Below are positions 2,948 to 37,521 of a DNA stretch of 64,000 bases, in pieces; position 1 is the first letter of the stretch; each line of letters opens with the position of its first letter. The position numbers and the translations under genes are program-made. The stretch comes from Candidatus Lokiarchaeum ossiferum (GTDB lineage Archaea; Asgardarchaeota; Lokiarchaeia; Sigyniarchaeales; Promethearchaeaceae). The stretch lies in contig CP104013.1 in the NCBI GenBank assembly GCA_025839675.1, forward strand, positions 3,105,121-3,169,120, read 5' to 3'. Below the pieces are notes generated by a model, which worked only from the letters and a program-made list of their open reading frames with translations, had not been told where the DNA came from and ran no database searches.

Positions 2948-3139
2948 TTTTAGATCAATTATTTTTCAAAATTTTAATTTTAAATTTCTATATTTTTTAT
3001 CAATAAAAATATATGAACCAATATCAAAAGTAGTAAAATCAGCCCATGGCAAAGTCCTGTTGTACCAATTGTATTAGCTCTGTATGAAATCCGGTTCCTT
3101 GGCTGATTCAAAGCCAGGGTCCATATGTTCCTTTTCCAG

Positions 3140-6330
<3,191 letters not shown>

Positions 6331-13415: not shown

Positions 13416-13549
13416 GCAGGGATAGCCAAGCCTGGTCAATCTCCTATAGGCGCAAAAAATTTAGCGTCACACTCTTTTGGAGGACTATCGGCGCTGGACT
13501 CAAGATCCAGTCCTGTAGGGGTACGTGCGTTCGAATCGCACTCCCTGCA
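13416..13549 (+). tRNA. tRNA-Leu (anticodon CAA) with a roughly 50-nt non-canonical intron in the D-loop (about 13440 to 13489)
   Basis: Acceptor GCAGGGA/TCCCTGC, D-arm GCC-AAGCCTGGTCAA[insert]GGC, anticodon stem-loop CTGGA-CTCAAGA-TCCAG, long variable arm, T-arm GTGCG-TTCGAAT-CGCAC, discriminator A. CCA is not encoded. Confidence 0.75.
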
Positions 13550-13636
13550 CTTATTTTTAAAACATTAAACATCTCTCTAAAAATTTTGAAATAGGTACTA
13601 AAAAAAACTTATAAAACAGTAGGGACGAAGAATTGA

Positions 13637-37127: not shown

Positions 37128-37271
37128 AATTTTTGTTAATATGTCTATTAGAATATAGGATAATAAAAAGAAATATATTTCCCCAAAAATACCTTTACTT
37201 GCCTTTTAGCTTAAACATTGCTGAGTTATGCGATGATGTAATGTGAACTCATAAGGCAACAATAAAGAAAT

Positions 37272-37381
37272 TGGTAGCGGGAGGAGGATTTGAACCACCC
37301 GATCTCAGGGTTATGAGCCCTGCAGCCTAGACCAGATTTGACTTATAAAGTGAAACACCTTATAATCTAGCCCATCCCGCT
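37272..37381 (-). tRNA. Initiator tRNA-Met (CAT) with a roughly 35-nt insertion (putative non-canonical intron) in the D-arm; CCA encoded
   Basis: The reverse complement reads AGCGGGA-TG-GGCTAG[ATTATAAGGTGTTTCACTTTATAAGTCAAATCTGGT]CTAGGC-TG-CAGGG-CTCATAA-CCCTG-AGATC-GGTGG-TTCAAAT-CCTCC-TCCCGCT-A-CCA. The A1:U72 pair and AGCGGG start are typical of archaeal tRNAi. Exact intron borders are unresolved. Confidence 0.7.
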
Positions 37382-37521
37382 TTGGTATTTATCCAAAGAT
37401 ATTTTAATGAATTAAGCACATCTAAAAAGATTTACGGTTAGTTGGGATCAAAGATGTAACCTTTAAATTCATTTTATTTTACAAGAAGAATTTTCTTAAT
37501 TCATCTTTCCTTGCTTAAGTC

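Follow-up and report, generated by a model that had tools for sequence, protein, structure and literature searches.

An initiator tRNA gene of Candidatus Lokiarchaeum ossiferum whose D-loop insert is very probably an intron

The stretch of the Candidatus Lokiarchaeum ossiferum genome analyzed here (64,000 nt of contig CP104013.1, referred to below as the window) encodes an initiator tRNA-Met on its minus strand, the D-arm of which is interrupted by an insert. Is this a functional gene carrying an intron, a decayed copy of a gene that works elsewhere in the genome, or a tRNA that operates with an enlarged D-loop? And if the insert is an intron, where exactly would it be cut?

By sequence reading, positions 37381 to 37272 on the minus strand form an archaeal initiator tRNA-Met gene of 110 nt, counting both the intron and an encoded CCA; its letters, 5' to 3', are AGCGGGAUGGGCUAG (exon), AUUAUAAGGUGUUUCACUUUAUAAGUCAAA (insert) and UCUGGUCUAGGCUGCAGGGCUCAUAACCCUGAGAUCGGGUGGUUCAAAUCCUCCUCCCGCUACCA (exon). 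The coordinates of its parts, and of other features of the window, are collected in Table 1. An earlier, sequence-only reading had assigned the gene to the initiator class on the AGCGGG start, A1:U72, the CAT anticodon and the encoded CCA, and each of these hallmarks is in place. A1 (37381) faces U72 (37276), the acceptor stem AGCGGGA/UCCCGCU forms seven of seven pairs, three G:C pairs (29-31:39-41) close the anticodon loop with its CAU (37315-37313), and the CCA occupies 37274-37272. The same anticodon arm was found in more than 100 archaeal initiator genes among the matches listed by a pattern search. The gene for aIF2β is ~1 kb away. Upstream of the tRNA, the TATA-like box TTAAAATA is a putative archaeal promoter of the tRNA gene (a related genome, L126, has TTAAGATA at the equivalent site), and a T-rich stretch lies 3' of the encoded CCA.

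Table 1. Features of the initiator tRNA-Met gene and of other parts of the window (positions in the window; gene nucleotides are numbered from A1)
Feature	Position	Strand	Description and basis
Whole initiator tRNA-Met gene	37272..37381	-	Sequence reading; same borders from relaxed ARAGORN
Exon 1	37367..37381	-	Acceptor 5' strand AGCGGGA, U8 G9, D-stem GGCU (10-13), A14 G15
Intron, 30 nt	37337..37366	-	AUUAUAAGGUGUUUCACUUUAUAAGUCAAA, between tRNA positions 15/16; orthologue alignment
Intron, 29-nt alternative	37338-37366	-	Strict 4-bp-helix rule; 3' cut one base earlier
Intron hairpin (inner helix h')	37343..37365	-	UUAUAAGGUG / CACUUUAUAA, 10 bp, UUU loop; minimum-free-energy fold
Intron 3' segment	37339..37343	-	A-GUC-A, can pair with D-stem GGCU as central helix H; energy evaluation, register scan
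Exon 2	37272..37336	-	D-loop remainder UCUGGUCUA, then D-stem 3' strand GGCU
Exon 2, middle		-	Anticodon arm CAGGG-CUCAUAA-CCCUG, variable loop AGAUC, T-arm GGG(U)GG-UUCAAAU-CCUCC
Exon 2, extra T-stem pyrimidine	37297	-	Gene nucleotide 85
Exon 2, 3' end		-	Acceptor 3' strand UCCCGCU, A73, CCA
Putative TATA-like box	37400..37407	-	TTAAAATA, 19-26 nt upstream of A1; sequence reading
Conserved ~60-nt element	~37200-37258	-	Between tRNA 3' end and OB-fold gene
tRNA-Leu(CAA) gene	13416-13550	+	Interrupted in the D-arm
tRNA-Leu intron, 49 nt	13440-13488	+	3' end of D-loop
23S rRNA gene	3137-6321	-	Complete, archaeal, 3185 nt

Comparison with syntenic orthologues places a 30-nt insert (37366→37337) between tRNA positions 15 and 16. 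The sequence-only reading had described a D-arm split by an insertion of roughly 35 nt; the interruption of the D-arm stands, but the insert is 30 nt long (possibly 29, see below) and lies in the D-loop rather than in the D-stem. The TCTGGT that had been counted as part of it is the D-loop itself (U16 C17 U17a G18 G19 U20). Splicing out 30 nt restores the D-stem and an 11-nt D-loop, AGUCUGGUCUA. An Rfam scan with E-values up to 10 returned no match apart from a partial one to the tRNA model. A self-splicing group I or group II intron is ruled out by the 30-nt size (a ribozyme core takes hundreds of nucleotides) and by the absence of matches, and a mobile element was rejected on size and lack of matches as well.

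Standard gene finders fail at this locus as it stands in the genome. ARAGORN with default settings makes no tRNA call anywhere in the 64-kb window, and the Rfam tRNA model (RF00005) gives the unspliced gene a partial match of 27 bits against a threshold of 29; by the same model, the intron-less orthologue of the related genome L254 scores 57.7 bits (gathering score 29). When introns are allowed and the threshold is lowered, ARAGORN recovers the right borders (37272-37381) and misplaces the intron in the anticodon loop. With exactly 30 nt taken out, the remaining 80-nt sequence is called tRNA-Met(CAU) by default ARAGORN, whereas the product of removing 29 nt, with its 12-nt D-loop, is rejected. 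The call on the shortened sequence and the score of the orthologue are far beyond chance.

Orthologues at the same site were fetched via two flanking proteins, the intergenic DNA was read, and the tRNA genes of L. ossiferum B36, of the genomes L126, L127, L129, L253 and L254, and of Promethearchaeum syntrophicum MK-D1 were aligned. In the window the gene order is peptidase M50, tRNA, OB-fold (RPA-like) protein, aIF2β, DUF424 protein, NMD3, RIO1 and KH protein. The stretch from peptidase M50 to RIO1 recurs in B36 (CP163304) and in L126, L127, L129, L253, L254 and MK-D1; the aIF2β protein encoded on CP163304.1 is identical to that of the window. Logan assemblies of sequencing runs from the B36 project (L258-L260) have a D-loop insert identical to that of the window and no other intron in the gene. 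L126, an ENA assembly in which the neighbouring protein is 85% identical, has the same D-loop insert, again with no other intron. The insert is absent from L127/L128 (neighbour 74% identical), where the D-arm reads GGCU-AGUCUGGUCUA-GGCU and the gene has a ~38-nt anticodon-loop intron. It is also absent from L129, L253 and MK-D1 (CP042905; neighbour 45-54% identical), which have the D-loop AGUCAGGUUCA and an anticodon-loop intron, and from L254 (neighbour 41% identical), which has no intron at all. The D-loops of L127, L129, L253, L254 and MK-D1 are uninterrupted (AGUCUGGUCUA, AGUCAGGUUCA or AGUCUGGCUA), and all intron-less D-loops of the orthologues are of an 11-nt AGUCNGG type. Exon 1 is identical in L126 and L127 and nearly identical in L129, L253, L254 and MK-D1. 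A metagenome scan for the exact L. ossiferum exons separated by any insert of 1-61 nt gave no match.

The window and L126 can be compared region by region. The exons are identical (80/80 positions, 100%), the intron agrees at 27/30 positions (90%), and identity is 83.6% over 140 nt upstream, 84.2% in the neighbouring coding sequence and 93.8% over 144 nt downstream, the last figure being high because of a conserved ~60-nt element (see below). The gene differs between the two genomes at three nucleotides (23, 26 and 40), all G>A and all within the insert. With ~12% divergence, 80 nt of exon free to change should have picked up roughly 10 changes, and 0 are observed. The locus thus combines conserved exons with an insert that varies and that is absent from L127, L129, L253, L254 and MK-D1.

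These comparisons bear directly on whether the gene is alive. A decayed or disrupted duplicate, in which a 30-nt palindromic insertion broke the D-arm while a working initiator tRNA persisted elsewhere in the genome, would be in keeping with the rejection of the locus by standard finders and with the imperfect splicing motif described below. The locus, however, corresponds by synteny to the initiator gene of six relatives; its exons carry 0/80 changes relative to a genome that differs by 6-16% in the flanks, which look neutral; the insert holds all three of the changes within the gene and has been kept in two diverged genomes; and a search of the window that allowed 7 mismatches turned up no further copy of the 30-mer. 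The unchanged exons and the conserved genomic position together make a strong argument against a decayed duplicate, which on these comparisons appears very unlikely.

We find it scarcely credible that the insert is retained and that the tRNA works with an expanded D-loop bearing an extra hairpin. Such a tRNA would be in keeping with the preservation of G18 G19, of the D-stem and of all the remaining tertiary-contact positions, and with the compact, self-contained hairpin of the insert. Among the relatives compared, however, the insert is limited to L126, substitutions accumulate in it and not in the exons, and a textbook splice motif is found in at least one further tRNA of the organism. We know of no cytoplasmic tRNA with a 41-nt D-loop. 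In our judgement the locus is very probably a functional initiator tRNA-Met gene with a D-loop intron that would be removed by the splicing endonuclease. The earlier suggestion of a non-canonical intron, which we take to be protein-spliced, is supported by orthology based on synteny, by exon conservation and by the restored cloverleaf.

How the two splice sites would be presented is less straightforward. The insert is predicted to fold into a 10-bp hairpin (gene nucleotides 17-26 with 30-39), within which the G>A at nucleotide 23 (37359) in L126 converts a G·U into an A-U pair. Near the 3' end of the insert, AGUC can form four of four pairs with the D-stem strand GGCU, and in the alternative register GUCA forms two of four. 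The strict hBHBh' motif consists of two 3-nt bulges on opposite strands with a 4-bp helix between them, cut after the second bulge nucleotide. The initiator intron departs from this motif in either register, while the tRNA-Leu intron of the window (see below) and at least 49 foreign introns at position 15/16 conform to it. A relaxed HBh'/hBH motif, with at least one splice site in a bulge flanked by both helices and the other in a loop or unpaired stretch, is present: it is made up of GGCU:AGUC (4 bp), the bulge A14 G15|A16 (U17), the intron hairpin of 9-10 bp and, as the 3' site, the unpaired AAA|U directly after the helix. Relaxed motifs of the HBh' type have been described for organisms with (αβ)2 endonuclease (PMC4090602). 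In its lowest-energy fold (-40.2 kcal/mol) the precursor adopts a long helix between exon and intron, interrupted by a 6-nt bulge, and not a bulge-helix-bulge; the two motif folds lie at -25 to -31 kcal/mol (-31.4 for the 4/4 register, -25.4 for the alternative).

The two registers imply introns of different length. A 30-nt intron has a 2/4 central helix, keeps the inner hairpin in register, reproduces the orthologous D-loop and yields a product accepted by ARAGORN. If the intron were instead 29 nt long, the 3' cut (AA|A) would fall two nucleotides past the perfect GGCU:AGUC helix, as it does in all of the at least 49 analogous 15/16 introns, where the exon resumes 2 nt after a 4/4 helix; the strict rule applied to B36 points to this same cut (A44|A45), and the register is the more stable of the two in B36 by the energies just given. 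The mature D-loop, AGAUCUGGUCUA, would however be 12 nt, one A longer than the 11-nt AGUCNGG type of the intron-less orthologues, in a product that ARAGORN, which recognizes the 30-nt product, does not. The 29-nt register also has a 4-nt 5' bulge, costs the inner hairpin a pair and leaves it with a single inner-helix pair in register. In L126, the G40A change weakens the 4/4 helix by a C×A mismatch in its middle; under the 30-nt register the same change replaces U13·G40 by U13-A40. The evidence thus points both ways; we regard a 29-nt intron as somewhat unlikely and rank the 30-nt intron tentatively ahead of it, on the strength of the orthologous D-loops.

Under the preferred reading of a functional, spliced gene, a single precursor would be transcribed from the minus strand, with the TATA-like box ~20-26 nt upstream. 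The intron would form its 10-bp hairpin, and AGUC at its 3' end would pair with GGCU of the D-stem 5' strand, leaving the 5' site (A14 G15|A16) and the 3' site (AA|A or AAA|U) unpaired on either side of a short central helix. Both sites would be cut by an endonuclease of the (αβ)2 type with an L1/CSL loop, the type reported for Asgard archaea, and the exons would be joined by an RNA ligase to give the D-stem and the 11-nt D-loop AGUCUGGUCUA. The exon-joining RNA ligase of archaea is RtcB. We thus take the insert for a non-canonical intron of the bulge-helix-bulge type, presumably cut by a broad-specificity (αβ)2 splicing endonuclease; an (αβ)2 EndA with an L1 loop has been reported for Asgard archaea (PMC5829648).

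The window contains one further tRNA gene, a tRNA-Leu(CAA), which the sequence-only reading had likewise described as split in the D-arm. This gene is real, and two of two tRNA genes in the window are therefore interrupted in the D-arm. Its intron, at the 3' end of the D-loop, has a textbook motif, with the central helix GGUC:GACU, the bulges AA|U and AU|C and the inner helix CUCC/GGAG. The gene is missed by default finders, and its spliced 86-nt form is called tRNA-Leu by ARAGORN. From the textbook motif it follows that the organism evidently relies on the endonuclease splicing route. Both tRNA genes of the 64-kb window are missed by default ARAGORN and Rfam, and without intron-aware curation the genome of a cultured Asgard archaeon could seem to be without an initiator tRNA. 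L. ossiferum is one of the few cultured members of the Asgard archaea.

Introns between positions 15 and 16 of initiator tRNAs also occur in other archaea. We scanned genomes with a pattern for initiator tRNAs bearing an insertion in the 5' half; the at least 120 matches listed all came from outside the Asgard archaea and were mostly genes of Thermoplasmata and DPANN, and the bacterial matches were discarded as chance hits in which AGCGG..TRG lies upstream of a normal initiator gene. Clean-motif 15/16 introns are present in initiator tRNAs with at least 49 distinct sequences (at least 6 from DPANN genomes and at least 43 from soil-metagenome contigs). In these foreign introns, the central helix joins positions 10-13 to a four-base segment of the intron, with four of four pairs formed, and a tail of two bases leads from there to the exon. 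The 5' bulge reads A14 G15|A, and the inner helix starts without a shift in register. The site would recur because an intron that borrows the 5' strand of the D-stem as one side of its central helix must be cut two bases later.

The introns of Woesearchaeota and Nanoarchaeota MAGs and of soil metagenomes resemble that of L. ossiferum in the tRNA affected, in the arrangement A14 G15 | intron | pyrimidine-16, and in an intron 3' end that mimics the 3' strand of the D-stem and pairs with positions 10-13. Among the matches listed they are 21-44 nt long and begin with A, as in L. ossiferum. They keep to strict spacing with a 3-nt bulge, whereas L. ossiferum has one extra A before U16, and the soil-metagenome genes differ further in having a second intron in the variable-loop/T-arm region. 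No sequence similarity links the foreign 15/16 introns to that of L. ossiferum, which points to probably independent gains at a geometrically favoured site. The two-intron soil genes are found among the loci L133-L252 (e.g., L135:5772-5838), with the second intron placed 3' of the variable loop, within the region of the T-arm (…CCCUGAGAUUG-AUCGA…UCGAUC-CUCAAGCGGUGGUUCGAA…). A looser metagenome pattern listed, among its matches, soil archaeal genes and an SMTZ1-named contig with an intron at another position of the D-loop.

Another kind of D-loop insert emerged from the Thermoplasmata. Dozens of Thermoplasmata MAGs (L006-L125, e.g., L006:3926-4017) have an initiator tRNA with a ~29-nt insert placed later in the D-loop (…AGUCAGGAAA(ACGGCCGG…CCGGCCGUCCUGAAA)UCCC…, insert in parentheses). 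This insert is GC-rich, shows many compensatory changes in a hairpin and is flanked by a CAGGAAA/CUGAAA repeat; by these features it looks like a conserved D-loop intron. Thermoplasmata are usually said to have strict, canonical-only splicing.

The closest experimental precedent is Aeropyrum pernix. A crenarchaeal (αβ)2 EndA removes the D-loop intron of its pre-tRNA-Thr2(UGU) in vitro, at a slower rate than an intron of the anticodon loop, and the mature tRNA exists in vivo (PMC3241643). In both organisms a short D-loop intron of the protein-spliced kind has a hairpin and a short exon-intron helix that present the cut sites, its removal restores a normal cloverleaf, and the host clade has the (αβ)2 enzyme with its specificity loop (PMC5829648). 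The two differ in the tRNA affected (the initiator in L. ossiferum, tRNA-Thr2 in A. pernix) and in the motif: the A. pernix intron, which has been cut in vitro, is described as a canonical bulge-helix-bulge, whereas that of L. ossiferum is off-register, with either a 2/4 central helix or a 4/4 helix and a 4-nt bulge.

More generally, tRNA introns with a non-canonical bulge-helix-bulge, in archaea with a broad-specificity (αβ)2 endonuclease, are covered by reviews (PMC4090602, PMC6379350), one of which gives their positions as 20/21, 22/23 and others, closing with an "etc." (PMC4090602). Non-canonical tRNA introns, including those of the D-loop, are textbook knowledge for Crenarchaeota, Thaumarchaeota and Nanoarchaeota (PMC4090602, PMC3241643). 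Disrupted tRNA genes and incomplete tRNA sets were noted among Asgard archaea in a 2018 survey (PMC5829648), and a 2024 study of Atabeyarchaeia and Freyarchaeia found introns, frequently at non-canonical positions, in 92-95% of the tRNA genes (PMC11291895). The L. ossiferum gene belongs to the same superphylum as these intron-rich sets, in which non-canonical or multiple introns are frequent and are missed by standard finders (PMC11291895, PMC5829648); it differs from them in having a single intron, in place of the anticodon-loop intron of its sister lineages. The sequence-only reading had taken two D-arm insertions in one window as a sign of a lineage-wide tendency toward non-canonical introns. 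Such introns are already published as abundant for Asgard archaea, but this particular one was seen only in L. ossiferum and one close relative.

Our literature search found no published description of this gene or of tRNA introns in L. ossiferum. The general picture is unchanged by the gene, since non-canonical tRNA introns are well established in archaea and abundant in Asgard genomes. We consider the case mildly unusual for its off-register motif and because, in a single essential gene of a cultured Asgard archaeon, one intron position has recently been exchanged for another.

That exchange is best seen against the initiator genes of MK-D1, L129, L253 and L127, which are orthologous, lie in the same neighbourhood and have near-identical exons, down to an extra pyrimidine in the T-stem. 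Their intron is at the canonical position 37/38, is ~35-38 nt long, and has a central helix of 3-4 of four pairs and a 3' bulge AA|A38; unlike in L. ossiferum, the D-loop is uninterrupted. The anticodon-loop introns of L127 and of the P. syntrophicum group have similar 3' ends (…AAAAUUUGAGAA and …AAAAUUGUGAA), and, judged by eye on the alignment, they do not resemble the D-loop intron in any evident way. Among the syntenic orthologues compared, only L. ossiferum and L126 have the D-loop intron. It appears from this distribution to be a recent gain in the L. ossiferum lineage, coinciding with the loss of the anticodon-loop intron. The simplest history suggested by the alignment is that an anticodon-loop intron was ancestral and that it was lost in the L. 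ossiferum lineage, which gained the D-loop intron. At a single essential gene, and over short distances, the intron thus lies in the D-loop, in the anticodon loop or is lacking altogether, depending on the lineage; this turnover bears on the debate over whether tRNA introns were gained late.

A more far-reaching proposal, which we hold to be unlikely on present evidence, is that Lokiarchaeum swapped an anticodon-loop intron for a D-loop intron with a motif off by one base, so that either its endonuclease tolerates a geometry not previously described (a 2/4 helix or asymmetric bulges) or its initiator tRNA has a 12-nt D-loop. If true, the gene would be a dated example of tRNA intron gain in a cultured organism. 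Its imperfect motif offers a concrete substrate for probing the tolerance of the Asgard splicing endonuclease.

Several further features of the locus and its surroundings deserve mention. Of the genes aligned, those of L. ossiferum and L126 alone encode the 3' CCA, the others having A-UCC, A-UAU or A-CUA after the discriminator; an encoded CCA is therefore not a conserved feature of the gene. The orientation of the tRNA relative to the OB-fold gene is opposite in L129, L253 and L257 to that in the window, L126, L127 and L254, and the tRNA of MK-D1 and its group lies on the opposite strand relative to the OB-fold gene, unlike that of L. ossiferum. With the flanking genes the same, this difference between the P. 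syntrophicum and L. ossiferum groups suggests a small inversion at the locus.

Positions 51 and 52 in the T-stem of the gene are separated by an extra pyrimidine, which bulges out. It is shared by the window, L126, L127, L129, L253, L254 and L257, being U in six of these loci and C in L254, and Infernal also aligns it as an insertion in the Rfam alignments of the orthologues. Around it, the T-stem pairs 50:64 and 51:63 covary (GGG-U-GG/CCUCC, GAA-U-GG/CCUUC, GGA-U-GG/CCUCC and GGG-C-GG/CCCCC). The T-stem of the SMTZ1-named contig (L155) is normal.

Elsewhere in the window, the archaeal 23S rRNA gene is longer than its model (model length 2987), and no 16S rRNA gene was found in the 64 kb; the rRNA genes are thus unlinked here, and the 23S gene carries extra sequence.

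Finally, the conserved ~60-nt element that follows the tRNA gene (GCCUUAUGAG…CAUCGC…AUGYUUAAG…AAGGC) is also present in L126, L127, L129, L253, L254 and L257, and the OB-fold/aIF2β cluster has its apparent promoter downstream of the element. No Rfam model matches it. Its predicted fold is a nested hairpin with 19 pairs, of which 8 show compensatory changes when six genomes are compared, and it may represent an unannotated small RNA or a regulatory leader.
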